64,000 bases of DNA. It comes from Candidatus Kapaibacterium sp. (GTDB lineage: Bacteria; Bacteroidota; Ignavibacteria; Kapaibacteriales; UBA2268). Within the stretch, counting starts at the first letter, position 1; each line of letters opens with the position of its first letter. Of this stretch, positions 5,216-55,970 are shown in pieces. Location of the stretch: the NCBI GenBank assembly GCA_963665665.1, contig OY762428.1:3680001-3744000 (forward strand). The letters are read 5' to 3'. The notes below the pieces were generated by a model. It saw only the letters and a program-made list of their open reading frames with translations, searched no databases and had not been told where the DNA came from. A program made the translations under genes and the position numbers.

Positions 5216-7249
5216 TCATTTTCCCGATTCAAAGTAGTTGTAAATTAATTCCTGAGAAGAACTGACAGCAGCATCTCTTTCTTTAAATAAATTCTTAAGG
5301 TCAGGTTCGATTATACGTGCTTTTTTCCGGTCACTGAGTTGAATATTAATTATATCCATTAATTCCTGCTGAATATTATCATCATAAATTGGGAATACTA
5401 CTTCGATACGCCTGCTAAGGTTTCTTTTCATCCAGTCGGCTGAACCCGCGTAAATTTTAGTATTGCCATTGTTGTGGAAAACAAACACTCTTGAATGCTC
5501 CAGGAAACGATCAACAATACTTATAACCTCAATATTTTCACTTAGTCCGGCTACTCCGGGTTTCAGGCAGCATATTCCCCGGCAGATAATTTTTATACTT
5601 ACTCCGGCATTAGAAGCTTCATAAAGTTGTTTTATCATCTTTCTGTCTTCCAGCCCGTTTACTTTTATAATTATTCCGGACTTCTTCCCCTGACGGGCAT
5701 TTTCAATTTCTTTTCGTATTCTCGCGATAAATACTTTCCTCATATTGAACTGTGCTACCAATAGATGCGTAAATTTATAATTCAACCTTTTGCCTTCGAG
5801 TATTTCGAATACTCTGTCAAGTTCGGAGCAAATGCCCTCATGAGAAGTAAAATATCCTATATCAGTATATATTTTAGCATTTTTTTCATTGAAATTTCCG
5901 GTTGACAGAAAGGCATATCTTTTTATAGCTGTTCCGTCTTTTCTATGAATAAGGGCTATCTTTGCGTGTACTTTCAGCCCGGGAAAACTATAGTGAACTT
6001 TTATACCGGCTTTTTCCATTTCTTCAGCCCAGTATATGTTGGACTCTTCATCAAAGCGGGCTTTTATTTCAACAAAAACGGTAACATCTTTTCCGGCATG
6101 CACTGCTCTGATCAATGCCTTCACTACTTCAGAATCACGGGCTACACGATATTGTGTGATTTTAATTGACTCAACCTGCTTGTCGGTGGCAGCAGCATTA
6201 AGGAAATCCAAAACATGATCGTAAGTATGATACGGGAAATTGATGATATTGTCTTTTGCATTAATAGCATCAAAAACAGCTATTCCTTCGGGCAGCTCTT
6301 TGTACCGCATGGGTGGCATTTCTTTGTAGGAAAGGCTTGCATCATTAGTTCTTGGAAATCCGAAATAATCACTAAAATTGTGATATCTCCCGCCTGGTAC
6401 TAAGTCCTCTTCGAATAATGAAAGGCTTTCCTGAAGATAATCCAGCATTTCGAAACTTATATTTTTATCATATAAAAAACGACATGGAGGGCCGTTTGGC
6501 CTCTTATTCAAGCCTTTTTTGATTTTTTGAAGTAAATTGCCGCTGAATTCATCATCAATATTCAGGTGCGCACCTCTTGTTAATTTAACTGATGCAATCT
6601 CTGCAACTTGATATTCCGGAAAAAGTTCAGAAATAAAATGCCGGATAATATCATCAATATAAATCACATAGGTTTTTGATCCGGTATCAGGAAGTCGGAT
6701 AAATCTTTTATACTCATCTGAAGGTATGTTTACAATGAAATAATCAAGCATTCCGCTGTTATTAACAGCTTTTACTGAAAAATATATCTGCCCGTTTTTC
6801 AGAAAAGGTATTGACATTGATTTTTTAATTTTCACAATATTGATCAATGGTTTAATCTCTTCCCGGAATATTTTTGAAATCACACCTGACTGTTCATCGT
6901 TTAGTTCTGTGTCATTTACCAGGTAAATATTATTGTTTCTTAGGCTGGGAACTATTGATTTCCTGAAAATATTGCCAAACTCCTCCTGATGCTTATTCAC
7001 GGTAAAATTGATCTGCTTAATAAGTTTTGAAGGATTGAACTTTAATTTCTCAACTGATTTTTTATTCAGTTCCAGCAATGACATAAGTGATGCAACTCTT
7101 ACTCTGTAAAATTCATCAAGGTTTGATGAGAAGATTGCCAAAAATTTAATTCTCTCGAATAATGGTACTTCAGTATCAGCTGCTTCCTGAAGCACCCTGT
7201 GGTTAAATGCAAGCCAACTGATCTCGCGGTTAATGTATATGTCTTTCAT
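5216..7249 (-). CDS. ppk1: Polyphosphate kinase 1
   Basis: 'YINREISWLAFNHRVLQEA', 'SSNLDEFYRVRVA', 'KARFDEESNI', 'KVHAKIALI', 'SIVDRFLEHSR', 'GSADWMKRNL'. Confidence 0.97.
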   Translation of the reverse strand: MKDIYINREISWLAFNHRVLQEAADTEVPLFERIKFLAIFSSNLDEFYRVRVASLMSLLELNKKSVEKLKFNPSKLIKQINFTVNKHQEEFGNIFRKSIVPSLRNNNIYLVNDTELNDEQSGVISKIFREEIKPLINIVKIKKSMSIPFLKNGQIYFSVKAVNNSGMLDYFIVNIPSDEYKRFIRLPDTGSKTYVIYIDDIIRHFISELFPEYQVAEIASVKLTRGAHLNIDDEFSGNLLQKIKKGLNKRPNGPPCRFLYDKNISFEMLDYLQESLSLFEEDLVPGGRYHNFSDYFGFPRTNDASLSYKEMPPMRYKELPEGIAVFDAINAKDNIINFPYHTYDHVLDFLNAAATDKQVESIKITQYRVARDSEVVKALIRAVHAGKDVTVFVEIKARFDEESNIYWAEEMEKAGIKVHYSFPGLKVHAKIALIHRKDGTAIKRYAFLSTGNFNEKNAKIYTDIGYFTSHEGICSELDRVFEILEGKRLNYKFTHLLVAQFNMRKVFIARIRKEIENARQGKKSGIIIKVNGLEDRKMIKQLYEASNAGVSIKIICRGICCLKPGVAGLSENIEVISIVDRFLEHSRVFVFHNNGNTKIYAGSADWMKRNLSRRIEVVFPIYDDNIQQELMDIINIQLSDRKKARIIEPDLKNLFKERDAAVSSSQELIYNYFESGK

Positions 7250-11130: not shown

Positions 11131-12165
11131 ATGCTGCGCAATTCGTTAATTTTTATAATTTTGATATTATTTTTCTTTTCCTGCGGGGACGATAGCGGAA
11201 CCAATAATGGAAATTCAGATTCCTTATGGATATATTACAATTTTAGGCCTGATAACGACCAGCCATTTGTAATCGAGAGAATGGACCTTCAAACAGGCAA
11301 GAGATATGAAATTATTGATTCTGCCGAATTAGCATCTCTGCCTGTAAATAACAGACTGATATTTAAGAGATATGATGAGGAAGAAGATAGTCAGGGGCAT
11401 AAAACCGGAACCAATCAGCTATGGGTTTCTGCTGCCGATGGCAAAAACAGGCAATTGCTGATAGAAAAAGAATATGACCAAAATCAATTCGAAGCCTGGA
11501 TGTTGAATGACGGAAATACTGCTGTATTGCTTTCAAACAAAGAATTATCAGTTATTGGCATTGATGATGGAAGTGAAGAAAAGATAAGCAATACGCCTTC
11601 TTACCTGAATATTCATTACATGGCCATTGCTCCGGACGGATCAGGAGGAGCATTTTTCTCCAATAATTGTTTATATATAGTTGATCACGAGGCAAAAACA
11701 CTAAGGGAAATTGATATTCCGGATTGTAATCTGGATTCTTTTTTTTCATACGACCAGCAAGGTAAAAATATAATAGGCAAAATTAATGGCAATGAAACGA
11801 ATACTCTGGTAAAAATTAATTTGGAATCTGCTGATATTGATACAATTGGAACCGGAAAAAGTTTTAACAGGCCTTACTTACTTGCAAATGGCGAAATTAT
11901 TTTTAATGAATTAGAACCTAACGCACAGTATCGTAATTATTTTTATAATGTTTGGGTGATCAAACCCGGCAGTACCGTACCCCAAATATTAAGCCCGAAA
12001 GAAGGCAACGGCTACAGGCATATTTATCATAAAGAATTTGTTGGTAATGATGAAATCCTTCTCGGAAAAATCAGGCCTTATTCAGCTCACTACTATGATA
12101 AAATATACGCTTGCAATATCTACACGGGCGAATTAAGATTTCTTTGTGATGTAAATTTAATTTAA
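11131..12165 (+). CDS. Lipoprotein, TolB/DUF5050-like beta-propeller
   Basis: Lipobox 'LFFFSC'; 'LWVSAADGKNRQLL' and 'IAPDG' blade-like motifs. Confidence 0.7.
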   Translation: MLRNSLIFIILILFFFSCGDDSGTNNGNSDSLWIYYNFRPDNDQPFVIERMDLQTGKRYEIIDSAELASLPVNNRLIFKRYDEEEDSQGHKTGTNQLWVSAADGKNRQLLIEKEYDQNQFEAWMLNDGNTAVLLSNKELSVIGIDDGSEEKISNTPSYLNIHYMAIAPDGSGGAFFSNNCLYIVDHEAKTLREIDIPDCNLDSFFSYDQQGKNIIGKINGNETNTLVKINLESADIDTIGTGKSFNRPYLLANGEIIFNELEPNAQYRNYFYNVWVIKPGSTVPQILSPKEGNGYRHIYHKEFVGNDEILLGKIRPYSAHYYDKIYACNIYTGELRFLCDVNLI

Positions 12166-12190: not shown

Positions 12191-13231
12191 ATGCTACGCA
12201 AATTTTGTTTATTCACTGTTATAATATTATTTTTCATGTCATGCGGGGATGATGATAATGGAACTACTACGACTGGGGACACTCCCGAATGGTTTTACAT
12301 GACGAGAACAACCGATAGCGAAGAATGCACCAATCATTATATTGAAAGAATTAATATCAACAATGGGAATGTGGAACATGTAATCGACAGTGCCAGGATG
12401 TTTTCACGTCCCGGCGGCGGCAAACTTGCTTTTATAAGAACTTTAAGGCGGCTTACACAGGATAGCGGCCTGGTCGACGACAGGTATCTTTACATTTGTA
12501 ATGAGGATGGCAGTAATCCTGAACTACTATTGAATGAGAGCTTCGGGCAGATGACCTGCATTCCCCATATTTCGCCCGATGGCAAAAATATCTTAATGTC
12601 GGCAGGAAGTAATATTATGGATATTGATGTGGAAACAGGTGAAAAAAGGGAAATTATTAACGCCGGAGGATTTTTCAATTTGCATTTTGTTGCTTTCCGG
12701 GAAAATTCAAGCATCTGTGCCTTTGTTTTCAATAATGTTGTTGCTACCTATGATTTTGCCTTGAATTCACTCGAGGCACGTTTCCAAAGCGAAAATGATA
12801 TAAATGATGTTATTTGTTTCGATGAAACCGGCGATTATATTTTTGCAAATGTTAAAGCAGAAGATGATTACCTTTTGAAAATTGAAATTGCAACAGGCAA
12901 TGCCGATACTCTTGATAAGGGAAAAGACTATAAAAATTTATGCTGCAATAACGAAGGTATTGTGATATTTGCTGAAATGACAACACTTACAACAAATAAT
13001 TATATTTTTAATTTATGGAAAATGAATTCTGACGGCAGCAGTCCGGAAAAACTTATCCCGCTTGATGGGAACGGATATTATCACGCCCCTAATAAACCAT
13101 TTACAAATAATAACGAGCTTTTGGCAGGACGTGTTGTTCCAAATGGAAACGGCCGGTGCGATAATCTTGTGGGAATAAATATTTCAACTGGACACATCAG
13201 GCAAATCTGTAATGGATGCCTGAATGATTAG
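12191..13231 (+). CDS. Lipoprotein, TolB/DUF5050-like beta-propeller; paralog of the upstream gene
   Basis: Lipobox 'LFFMSC'; 'LYICNEDGSNPELL', 'ISPDGKNI', 'LWKMNSDGSSPEKL'; similar ends and length to 11131-12165. Confidence 0.7.
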   Translation: MLRKFCLFTVIILFFMSCGDDDNGTTTTGDTPEWFYMTRTTDSEECTNHYIERININNGNVEHVIDSARMFSRPGGGKLAFIRTLRRLTQDSGLVDDRYLYICNEDGSNPELLLNESFGQMTCIPHISPDGKNILMSAGSNIMDIDVETGEKREIINAGGFFNLHFVAFRENSSICAFVFNNVVATYDFALNSLEARFQSENDINDVICFDETGDYIFANVKAEDDYLLKIEIATGNADTLDKGKDYKNLCCNNEGIVIFAEMTTLTTNNYIFNLWKMNSDGSSPEKLIPLDGNGYYHAPNKPFTNNNELLAGRVVPNGNGRCDNLVGINISTGHIRQICNGCLND

Positions 13232-13258: not shown

Positions 13259-13558
13259 ATGATAAAGCATGTTGTAATGTTCAGGATAAAAGAAGCCGAA
13301 GGGCTTAGCAAAGAAGAAAATATAATAAAAGCACAAAACTTACTGAAATCCCTGCCTTCGAAAATCGACCTTATCCGGGAGTACCAGGTGGGCATAAACG
13401 CAAAAGAATCGGAAAGAGCCGGAGATATTGTACTTATTTCAGCTTTTGATAATATGGAAAAACTTGCTGAATACAGTTCACACCCTGAGCATCAGGCTGT
13501 GGTTTCATTCCTGAAAAAAGTATGGTTCGACGTAATGGTTGTAGACTACGAGTATTGA
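13259..13558 (+). CDS. Dabb family stress-responsive A/B barrel protein
   Basis: 'MIKHVVMF', 'Y..HPEH', terminal 'VVDYE'; GGAG SD site. Confidence 0.9.
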   Translation: MIKHVVMFRIKEAEGLSKEENIIKAQNLLKSLPSKIDLIREYQVGINAKESERAGDIVLISAFDNMEKLAEYSSHPEHQAVVSFLKKVWFDVMVVDYEY

Positions 13559-13587
13559 TTATTATAAGGTTTGAACGATATACAAAT

Positions 13588-13650
13588 TAAAAAACCTTCC
13601 TTCCGCATTGGAAAAGAAGGTTAAGGGGGGGATGAAACTTTAGTTTTCAA
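13588..13650 (-). ncRNA. Candidate small RNA, putatively sigma54-dependent
   Basis: The minus strand has a promoter-like TTGGCACGAATTATGAT, a short hairpin, a C7 segment and a terminator with a U-tract; no ORF. Confidence 0.4.
13589..13622 (-). terminator. Rho-independent terminator oriented for a minus-strand transcript
   Basis: Minus strand reads AACCTTCTTTTCC-AATGC-GGAAGGAAGGTT-TTTT. Confidence 0.7.
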
Positions 13651-13660
13651 TAAATATTAC

Positions 13661-13677
13661 ATCATAATTCGTGCCAA
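13661..13677 (-). promoter_or_regulatory. Sigma54-like -24/-12 promoter
   Basis: Minus strand TTGGCACGAATTATGAT: perfect TGGCAC -24 element, with GG-N10-GA instead of GC at -12. Confidence 0.45.
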
Positions 13678-13694: not shown

Positions 13695-13725
13695 AAAAAA
13701 AGCCGGGAATCATCCCGGCTTTTAT
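13695..13725 (-). terminator. Terminator of the DUF1573 gene
   Basis: A7-GCCGGGA-ATCA-TCCCGGC-TTTT. Confidence 0.85.
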
Positions 13726-13744: not shown

Positions 13745-14458
13745 TCAATTATTATTAAAGATCGGAGATTCTTTTACTTTTCCAAATCCGTCAATTTTCA
13801 GTGTTCTATAATCATCATTGCTTGTTGACATTCTAACCCTGACATTAAAGTATCCTTTCTTCTCAGGTTTTGCTTTTACTTTAATATCAATTTTCTCACC
13901 GGGTGCAAGTGTTACCGGAGAAGCCAGGCTTATAGACACATTGTCCGGCTTAACTTCATAATCTGATAAAGTAACCTCTTCCTTGGAATTGTTCTTAACC
14001 CAGAATGATACTTCTTCACTTGTTCCTACCTGCATTTCATCAAAGGAAAAATAAGAATTTGGCCCGATTTCAATTTCCCTGACAACATTTGCTTTCAGCC
14101 AAAGAACTTTTCTCTTTTTCGTGGGATCGTTCGAACTGATATAAATCGTTTTGCTAACGGCACCAGAACGGCTGCCGATCCTTAGCGAAACATGCATAAC
14201 CGTAGATTCACCAGGCTTCAGTTCATTCTTGTCCAGCGGAGCTGTTGTACACCCGCAAGTAGGTTTTACATTAGTTATTTTCAGTGTTTCGTTACCGGTA
14301 TTTTTAAGAACAATATCAGCTTTCAGCGGAGAGTCGTTTGGCTTAACATCCTTCCAATTATATGTATCACCACCCTGAATTTCCAGTTTAGGCTGTGCAA
14401 GAGCAGCGGCTGCCGAGAAAACTCCAAAAGCCAGTAGAACAAATAAAATCCTCTTCAT
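13745..14458 (-). CDS. DUF1573 domain protein (secreted, two Ig-like domains)
   Basis: Signal peptide; 'KNTGNETLKITNVKPTCGCT...LKPGES' and 'SND' motifs. Confidence 0.9.
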   Translation of the reverse strand: MKRILFVLLAFGVFSAAAALAQPKLEIQGGDTYNWKDVKPNDSPLKADIVLKNTGNETLKITNVKPTCGCTTAPLDKNELKPGESTVMHVSLRIGSRSGAVSKTIYISSNDPTKKRKVLWLKANVVREIEIGPNSYFSFDEMQVGTSEEVSFWVKNNSKEEVTLSDYEVKPDNVSISLASPVTLAPGEKIDIKVKAKPEKKGYFNVRVRMSTSNDDYRTLKIDGFGKVKESPIFNNN

Positions 14459-14639: not shown

Positions 14640-15710
14640 ATGAATAAAAAAATTAGTGATTTTCTCAGGAAGTTTGTTGTTTACGCAATATTTTGGGCTA
14701 TAGCCTATTCTTTTTTCATATCAATAAAACTAACAAGTATTGAATTTACCCTTGATGTATTGAACGAACCGGATTTCAGATGGACGAGCCTGTATTTTGG
14801 TTCTTTTATAGGTGCAGTTTTCCTGTCGTTCATGCTTACATTTTTCGATGAAATATTATTTCCCAAACGTCTTCAAAGAAGTTCGTTTTCGTTGAATATT
14901 GCAATAAAAACTTTCACGTATTTCATTATTATTAACCTCACAATTTATTTAGTCTTTTTCTATTTTTCATTTTTCAGGGAATTTGATTCAAAGACGGTTA
15001 GAATATTTTTCAAATCCGGCACATATATCGGGTTTTCAATTTTCGGGCTGGTTTGCATAGCTTTGCTGAATTTCTTTCGCCAAATGTTTGATTATATTGG
15101 CAAAAGAAAACTATTTCGGCTGATAAGCGGTTATTATCACAAGCCCAGGAAAGAAGAAAGAGTTTTTATGTTTTTGGATATTAAGTCCTCCACAACTCTT
15201 GCCGAATCGATGGGTGAGATTGAATACAGCAGAATGCTTACCGATTTCTTTCATGATATTTCCATGCCGATAAAAAAATTCGGTGGCAGTATTTATCAAT
15301 ATGTTGGCGACGAAGCTGTTATCACCTGGCTGAAAAATGACGGCATCAGTAATTCTGCATGTGTGGAATGCTTCTTTGCTATCGAGGATGTAATAATTGA
15401 ACGGTCGGATATTTATCTGGAAAAATTCGGAGTTGTGCCCGAATTCCGTGCAGGCATGCATGCCGGGCCAGTGGTTACTACGGAGGTAGGAACTTTGAAA
15501 AAAGATATTGTTCACCATGGCGATACCGTTAATACAGCTTCTCGGATACAGGAAGAGTGTTCGGCCAGAGGCCTGGAGCTTCTGATATCATCCAACCTGT
15601 TCGAGCTGCTAAACCTGCCATATTATTTCAGCCTGAAAATGCTTGGCGAAATCAGCCTGAAAGGACGAGAAGAACCAATAGAGCTGCTAAGTATAACGTA
15701 CACAGGATAG
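14640..15710 (+). CDS. Membrane-bound class III adenylate/guanylate cyclase
   Basis: About four N-terminal TM segments; 'FMFLDIKSSTTLAE', 'YQYVGDE', 'HGDTVNTASRIQ', 'LKGRE'. Confidence 0.92.
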   Translation: MNKKISDFLRKFVVYAIFWAIAYSFFISIKLTSIEFTLDVLNEPDFRWTSLYFGSFIGAVFLSFMLTFFDEILFPKRLQRSSFSLNIAIKTFTYFIIINLTIYLVFFYFSFFREFDSKTVRIFFKSGTYIGFSIFGLVCIALLNFFRQMFDYIGKRKLFRLISGYYHKPRKEERVFMFLDIKSSTTLAESMGEIEYSRMLTDFFHDISMPIKKFGGSIYQYVGDEAVITWLKNDGISNSACVECFFAIEDVIIERSDIYLEKFGVVPEFRAGMHAGPVVTTEVGTLKKDIVHHGDTVNTASRIQEECSARGLELLISSNLFELLNLPYYFSLKMLGEISLKGREEPIELLSITYTG

Positions 15711-55697: not shown

Positions 55698-55785
55698 ATG
55701 AAAAACAAAATCGTTTGACTTGAAAAAAAATTTTCATAATTTGAATTATTCCCCTGGCAAAGTTGTCGGGTGATATATAAAATAT

Positions 55786-55900
55786 AATTTCTTCGGGGCA
55801 GGGCGAAATTCCCTACCGGCGGTAATAGTCCGCGACTCCCGAAAGGGACTGATCCGGTGAAATTCCGGAACCGACAGTCAAAGTCTGGATGGTAGAAGAT
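55786..55900 (+). ncRNA. FMN riboswitch (RFN element)
   Basis: CTTCGGGGCAGGGCGAAATTCCCTACCGGCGGT..AGTCCGCGA..GATCCGGTGAAATTCCGGAACCGACAGT..AGTCTGGATGGTAGAAG, directly upstream of ribB. Confidence 0.97.
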
Positions 55901-55970
55901 AATACCTTGCATGTACCAAATCAATGGTTCATGCCCTGTCCCGGTTTAATGCATAATGATCGAGGCAGAA

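Follow-up and report, generated by a model that had tools for sequence, protein, structure and literature searches.

The Dabb–DUF1573 intergenic region and its two terminators

The window, meaning the whole 64,000-nt stretch of DNA analysed here, contains two convergent genes coding for a Dabb protein and a DUF1573 protein, separated by a spacer of approximately 186–187 nt in which two hairpin terminators, T1 and T2, are located (Table 1). Both terminators had been proposed in the first-pass annotation of this DNA and both are present. T1 has folding energies of −17.1 and −18.0 kcal/mol on the two strands and a U7 tract. It serves DUF1573, as had been suggested, and its T-tracts on both strands make it able to end the Dabb mRNA as well, which it probably does.

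Table 1 Features of the Dabb–DUF1573 region and related loci (positions are those of the window unless a contig or locus name is given)
Feature	Position	Strand	Remarks
Dabb gene (stress-responsive A/B barrel)	13259..13558	+	Pfam PF07876, E 5e-22
T2, orphan intrinsic terminator	13584..13622	−	stem 13622..13593, then UUUUAAUUU
C7 run, predicted single-stranded seed	13625..13631	−	G7 then ATG on the plus strand
Weak 5′ hairpin	13633..13649	−	MFE structure: 5 pairs, 7-nt loop
Predicted transcription start	13648..13651	−	inferred from the usual −24/−12 spacing
−12-like element ATGAT	13661..13665	−	TG at 13664-13663; A replaces canonical C
−24 element TGGCAC	13671..13676	−	exact; T0 = 13676
T1, bidirectional terminator	13698..13723	both	11 pairs, 6 GC; T-tracts on either side
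DUF1573 gene	13745..14458	−	same strand as the candidate and upstream of it; Pfam PF07610, E 6.5e-30
Sigma-54-type promoter, ppk1	G000:C1:3443236		
Sigma-54-type promoter, flagellar rod gene	G000:C1:3600433		
Sigma-54-type promoter, flagellin gene	G000:C1:1460335		
Genus g9 RNA gene candidate, ~80 nt	L154:1505-1670, also L155-L158	+	conserved block from sigma-54-type promoter

T2 is separated from T1 by a gap of 75 nt, lies downstream of DUF1573's own terminator and has a stem of 12 pairs, including two G-U pairs, with a 6-nt loop, followed on the minus strand by UUUU-AA-UUU at 13592..13584. Its assignment to the minus strand stands, this being the only strand with a T-tract: the minus-strand RNA folds with −13.4 kcal/mol versus −10.7 kcal/mol for the plus-strand RNA, in which the stem is interrupted and no U-tract follows, and the minus-strand fold is the better one because two of the T2 pairs are G-U there. 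Hairpins of T2 grade (dG of −13 or lower, at least 10 pairs, positioned before a T-tract), searched for in the intergenic DNA with a purpose-written scanner, number 504 in the real sequence as opposed to 1, 3 and 1 in three dinucleotide shuffles (635,836 nt). T2 is a genuine minus-strand terminator and no chance hairpin.

It is reasonable to read such an orphan terminator as the end of a separate minus-strand unit, as was done in the first-pass annotation. Alternatively, T2 could be a fail-safe or insulating terminator catching read-through from T1 before it enters the Dabb gene in the antisense direction, in which case the promoter-like motif and the C-run described below would be functionless and the product would be at most a longer DUF1573 3′ UTR isoform. 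Two things speak against this, namely that T1 is already strong and that second terminators are rare in the genome. Out of 909 good intergenic terminators genome-wide (dG of −8 or lower, at least 6 pairs), 658 are the first to follow a gene of the same orientation, 220 are not preceded by such a gene and 31 are second or later ones, several of which enclose a unit of their own. Seventeen of the second terminators have a gap of 40–200 nt; two of these come after a tRNA, two after repeated small genes, three are part of a repeat element that brings hairpins of its own, and several are leader-like for the next gene. Bare “back-up” terminators are rare in this genome, but no single alternative is common either. 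These and the other genome-wide counts use a crude greedy longest-ORF map of 4317 ORFs, with some starts misplaced and some genes missed, such as the 356-aa ORF at 14640-15710.

The longest ORF in the gap between T1 and T2 has 20 aa, begins in a terminator loop and is not preceded by a Shine–Dalgarno (SD) sequence, and was rejected as a small gene. Elsewhere in the genome, a repeat element with GTTAATTCTATGATATTTAA and CCCCTCC...GGAGGGG hairpins recurs after genes (G000:C1:157566, 2692322, 2806902 and others) and mimics tandem terminators.

Sigma-54 promoters in the genome and in the family

The sigma-54 system invoked by the first-pass annotation is present. There is one copy of rpoN coding for a protein with the AID, CBD and DBD domains, whose nearest relatives are labelled Ignavibacteria or Kapabacteria, and seven enhancer-binding proteins, each possessing a Sigma54_activat domain and an HTH_8 DNA-binding domain.

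Of the 73 intergenic TGGCAC hexamers, 20 have TG at +12/+13, as compared with 1–8 (mean 4.2) for nine other offsets, and chance would account for about 4.2 of the 20 motif sites; among the 960 genic hexamers, TG is found at the same offset in 70. Seventeen of the 20 sites face a gene start, 12 of them at a distance of 32–66 nt from the motif end (measured for ppk1 from its likely start), and the genes behind them include those coding for flagellin, a flagellar rod protein, polyphosphate kinase (ppk1), a thioredoxin and a small secreted protein whose gene adjoins that of an activator. At the position of the canonical −12 C these 17 productive sites have A in seven cases, T in six, C in three and G in one, and the textbook TGGCAC-N5-TTGC occurs at only four sites in 5.46 Mb.

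At 13 of 30 ppk1 loci, drawn from different genera, TGGYAY-N5-NTG is retained 43–97 nt ahead of the gene start, the loci compared sharing 61–72% protein identity over the first 120 residues. ATGAT is present in five of the 13 motif-bearing loci, and C at −12 in none of them. Sigma-54 promoters in the family have the form TGGCAY-N5-WTGN, in which the −12 C is not conserved, and most of them therefore escape scans with the standard consensus; the ATGA of the candidate described here is ordinary in this setting. Judging by the ppk1 loci, the particular form TGGCAC-N5-ATGAT appears to be used and conserved in the family.

The housekeeping promoter is of the Bacteroidetes type (TTG...TAnnTTTG), an exact TAnnTTTG being located upstream of 31 of the 52 tRNA genes as well as upstream of the rRNA operon (16S at G000:C1:2677302).

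The candidate sigma-54 site

The −24/−12-like element noted between the terminators is found on the minus strand as the 17-mer TTGGCACGAATTATGAT (13677..13661), which has the TGGCAC-N5-ATGAT form and is present in the genome in a single copy, no further copies of the element having been detected. The canonical −12 element of sigma-54 promoters is TTGC(W), with the GC exactly 10 nt after the GG. The candidate has the correct spacing and the G, but the C is swapped for A, so the earlier description of the −12 element as non-canonical is right as to the missing C, although this is typical for the lineage. The core 17-mer resembles the conserved working promoter form, one relative's ppk1 core differing from it at two positions, both of which are variable among real sites, and this argues against a chance motif in front of a fail-safe terminator.

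The flanks of the site fit that explanation better. Beyond the fixed TGGCAC/TG letters the candidate scores −5.3 bits. Leave-one-out scoring places 15 of the 17 productive sites above this value, which is typical for randomly chosen intergenic positions, 58% of them scoring as well. The main penalty comes from the G at +16, a position occupied in the 17 productive sites by A (12), T (4) or C (1). In a second strain (runs X4/X5), assigned to the same species by word share, 13660 is A rather than G on the minus strand, and the A allele raises the score to −1.1 bits. The C-run and both terminators are identical in that strain, which differs from the window at three positions in 1601 nt; two of the three SNPs fall within the spacer and one of those in the promoter, a distribution that also fits a functionless motif.

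The polymorphic position 13660 (C in the window and T in X4/X5, plus strand) corresponds to position −10 of the candidate promoter, and the other allele is the one closer to the family consensus.

The room for an enhancer is short, the non-coding DNA upstream of the candidate comprising 68 nt, 26 of which are taken by T1, and this is less than at 16 of the 17 productive sites. Within 220 nt upstream, T1 itself is the sole inverted repeat, and a crude search found no word of at least 10 nt shared with the 17 other promoters beyond AT-rich chance. None of the seven activator genes is located in the 64,000-nt window. The short upstream region and the absence of a detectable enhancer in these searches are again in favour of T2 being a plain insulator, as is the fact that the candidate is one of three motif sites out of 20 facing no gene, where about two are expected by chance.

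The combination of motif and terminator is less easily explained in this way. A good same-strand terminator located 10–130 nt beyond the predicted start and not separated from it by a gene is found at 2.3% of random intergenic strand-positions, which gives about 0.1 chance pairings of promoter motif and orphan terminator per genome (4.2 × 0.023), and one is observed; the rarity of the pairing is suggestive but not significant. Taken by itself, TGGCAC shows no enrichment ahead of orphan terminators (2 of 73 compared to 1.7 expected). When the intergenic DNA was scanned with a position weight matrix (score of at least 10), the candidate was the only clear sigma-54-like site leading to a terminator without an intervening ORF, the other two matches being weak and one of them preceding a tRNA with its own housekeeping promoter.

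The predicted RNA and its C-run

For assumed starts at 13648–13653 the predicted RNA has a length of approximately 61–66 nt. The small 5′ hairpin suggested in the first-pass annotation is present in the minimum free energy structure but is weak (Table 1), while the C-run does come out as unpaired in silico, every C of C7 having an unpaired probability of at least 0.97 in foldings from four assumed starts. The complementarity of this segment to AAGGGGGGGAUGAAA, noted in the first-pass annotation, is hollow: that sequence is the plus strand of the same locus and no independent target. Runs of at least seven G or C are generally overrepresented threefold in intergenic DNA, which makes up 11.8% of the genome and holds 25 of the 72 runs; C7 is one of these 25, a point in favour of a run without function.

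No hfq gene was found in the genome. The lineage does use SD sequences, as had been supposed: CCUCC is present at the 16S rRNA 3′ end, and SD-like words are most frequent 9–13 nt before gene starts. Classical Bacteroidia are reported not to use SD sequences. Bacteroidetes-type housekeeping promoters thus coexist in this genome with a clear SD-like peak and a canonical CCUCC anti-SD.

The C7 run mismatches the canonical GGAGG at the A and fits G-runs better; GGGGG is found near only 35 of the 4317 crude starts. The best predicted duplex (−27.4 kcal/mol) involves a G9-ATG (genome 1967429) before a 71-aa ORF with no Pfam family; it was reached by none of 30 seed shuffles, which is expected and does not discriminate, because shuffling breaks the C-run. 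The 10-mer GGGGGGGATG occurs at eight other places in the genome, three of them intergenic, and one copy is located in the leader (about 200 nt) of a sigma-54-dependent gene coding for a 2037-aa protein (genome 2441138). A “GGGGGGGATG regulon” as a general rule was rejected, since ATG comes after a run of at least six G in only 16 of 448 cases, and the frames are mostly short. All nine copies of GGGGGGGATG (1.43–4.35 Mb) face the same way, on the plus strand of the contig. If the Dabb mRNA ends at T1, it is fully antisense to the candidate RNA through its 3′ UTR.

Search for relatives of the element

The genome is the sole member of its genus among the genomes compared, and its relatives are 44–63% identical to it in the flanking proteins. 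BLAST of the 141-nt region against 40 relatives returned only short AT-rich matches. Among 29 loci of DUF1573 orthologues (44–55% identity) none has a nearby Dabb gene, a sigma-54-like site or a downstream C-run; 24 of them show, by eye and in the first 220 nt, one obvious terminator-like hairpin with a T-tract. The element was likewise found downstream of none of the Dabb orthologues at 29 loci, one of which has no downstream DNA. The pattern TGGCAC-N5-WTG-N25-50-C6 occurs family-wide in this genome only (1 of 130, with none in the other 129), and metagenome contigs yielded 19 loci with no close kin among them, the best having 53% protein identity. No Rfam family matches at its gathering score, the best hit, STnc430, reaching 35.0 bits where 47 are required and aligning for the most part with the T1 hairpin. 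That the element is conserved nowhere among the relatives compared, all of them from other genera, is consistent with a motif of no function, yet with relatives so distant the lack of homologues is weak evidence against the candidate.

A looser pattern (TGGCAY-N5-WTG, C5, then T6) has matches in five of the 130 genomes versus none for the reversed control, and three of these represent one element of a single genus, designated g9. According to BLAST it is present in all five g9 genomes with 89–100% identity. The conserved block begins exactly at a sigma-54-type promoter, whereas the upstream flanks are unrelated, and extends for about 80 nt to a terminator, which is followed by a second terminator and a convergent gene; there is no forward ORF. 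One genome has a compensatory change in a small stem, and the RNA carries a C5/G5 palindrome. The g9 element has no match in Rfam, no copy in the genome studied here and no detectable sequence similarity to the candidate. A GGGAGC near the 5′ end of the g9 RNA could compete with the 3′ arm of the terminator for GCUCC.

The g9 RNA resembles the candidate in its sigma-54-type promoter, ORF-free stretch, C-run (C5 in g9), terminator, further terminator and convergent gene, and belongs to the same family, but it is conserved in five of five genomes, the candidate's genus being represented by a single one. Putative orphan RNAs running from a sigma-54-type promoter to a terminator do, by this evidence, occur in the family. 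The missing homologues of the candidate say little, because the g9 RNA is itself genus-specific at the BLAST level. Both the g9 RNA and the WTGN promoter form are firmer than the candidate and are useful for annotation.

Comparison with known small RNAs

C-rich small RNAs pairing with G-rich or G-repeat mRNA sites are described for Xanthomonas (sX13, which acts without Hfq) and Helicobacter pylori (RepG/HPnc5490) (PMC3771888). As described there, they share with the candidate an exposed C-run (UCCCCCU in both) that meets G-runs near translation starts, but their C's are in hairpin loops and the RNAs are conserved and experimentally proven, whereas the candidate is predicted from the sequence to have a linear C7 between two hairpins; moreover, no sigma-54 dependence of sX13 is mentioned in the available part of that report, in contrast to the sigma-54-type site of the candidate. 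RsaE and the other Rsa RNAs with a “C-rich box” are reported to bind the SD sequence through an unpaired motif and to block initiation without Hfq (PMC2790875). RsaE/RoxS, which are from Firmicutes, have, in the account given there, the same arrangement, in which an unpaired C-rich motif stands between a 5′ hairpin and a 3′ terminator, but their UCCC motifs match GGGA/GGAG, where the candidate C7 has the above mismatch to GGAGG, the phylum differs, and there is no homology to the candidate in sequence or structure.

Sigma-54-dependent small RNAs are exemplified by Qrr (PMC10162802) and GlmY/GlmZ (PMC3045617), and the sigma-54 regulome of Desulfovibrio vulgaris is reported to comprise four ncRNAs beside 201 coding genes (PMC4641369). 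In these cases, as far as the sources describe them, a short RNA without an ORF, ended by a terminator, follows directly on a −24/−12 promoter, as it would in the candidate. The known sigma-54 small RNAs are described as having mapped activator sites, in contrast to the candidate, for which the searches above found no enhancer, and two of the four D. vulgaris ncRNAs are reported to lie directly downstream of an activator gene (PMC4641369), while the window has none. With no Rfam match and no homology, the candidate is outside all these families. Its presentation in the first-pass annotation as an undescribed kind of regulator was nevertheless too strong, both sigma-54-driven and C-rich-seed small RNAs being known classes. 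Literature searches for small RNAs or sigma-54 in the Ignavibacteria/Kapabacteria lineage turned up nothing among the papers listed, which is not proof of absence.

A possible sigma-54-dependent small RNA and alternative explanations

The sequence features at the locus are real, and the candidate built on them is credible but unproven. We tentatively prefer the reading in which the locus encodes a sigma-54-dependent small RNA as a species-specific, stand-alone minus-strand unit, and put its chances at a little short of even. Sigma-54 RNA polymerase would bind TGGCAC-N5-ATGAT (13676..13661) and, fired by an enhancer-binding protein, would start near 13650 and stop at T2, giving a product of about 61–64 nt with the weak 5′ hairpin, a single-stranded AUCCCCCCCUUA stretch and the terminator hairpin. 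As Hfq is absent from the genome, the RNA would act without it. Its exposed C-run would base-pair with G-rich sequence in or around ribosome-binding sites in the manner of RsaE/RoxS, sX13 and RepG, and by virtue of its position the RNA would also form a perfect duplex with the Dabb 3′ UTR of the convergent mRNA.

A more ambitious version of this, which we consider improbable, would make it the first riboregulator driven by sigma-54 and independent of Hfq in the Ignavibacteria/Kapabacteria branch of the FCB group: a RepG-like RNA whose C7 clamps G-runs in mRNA leaders, with the G7-AUG in the leader of the gene for the 2037-aa protein as a possible target and hence a sigma-54 feed-forward loop, in a lineage lacking the near-universal C at −12. 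Should the RNA be real, both sigma-54-controlled small RNAs and C-rich seeds masking G-rich ribosome-binding sites would extend to a large, almost unstudied, Hfq-less FCB group, and the RNA would offer a small, testable entry to post-transcriptional control there.

The main competitor is the fail-safe or insulating function of T2 combined with a chance motif, to which we would assign about one third of the total probability; the flank score, the short upstream region, the SNPs and the general enrichment of G/C runs count for it, and the strength of T1, the scarcity of second terminators and the rare pairing of motif and terminator against it. A small RNA with the same C-run and also ending at T2, but made independently of sigma-54, is an unlikely third option. 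It would be transcribed from an unrecognised promoter, for example of an ECF-type sigma factor, or cut as a 3′-UTR-derived RNA from DUF1573 read-through. The real terminator and the predicted exposure of the C-run suit it equally, and the shortcomings of the sigma-54 site make another origin conceivable. Reading of the sequence, however, finds no exact copy of the housekeeping −7 box TAnnTTTG in the 75-nt gap, where the nearest words are two positions off, nor was any other promoter motif recognised there, and T1 should let few polymerases through. That the plus strand is the functional one, with the hairpin, G7 and ATG-AAA-CTT-TAG forming a Dabb 3′-UTR element or a three-codon mini-ORF, is very improbable in spite of the ATG directly following G7 (as it does in nine of the 72 runs of at least seven G) and of the Dabb mRNA probably extending through the stretch to T1, because the mini-ORF has only three codons, G7-ATG mostly occurs within genes or at the head of short frames, the plus-strand hairpin is the less stable one and has its T-tract on the opposite strand, and nothing similar is found downstream of Dabb at any of the 29 orthologue loci.

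For the preferred sigma-54-dependent small RNA, then, the firmest ground is the strand-specific T2, the promoter form of the family and the presence of rpoN with its activators, while the firing of the promoter, the start site, the RNA itself and each of its targets are to be taken as predictions.

Other features of the window

Two tandem paralogous genes coding for proteins of 344 and 346 aa (11131-12165 and 12191-13231, plus strand) are located directly upstream of the Dabb gene, and their products have lipoprotein-like N-termini (...FFxSCGDD). A second polyphosphate-kinase paralogue is encoded at 5225-7243 on the minus strand and has 35% identity to the product of the sigma-54-preceded ppk1 (G000:C1:3441096-3443189). 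An FMN riboswitch is located at 55785-55904 on the plus strand (113.7 bits).
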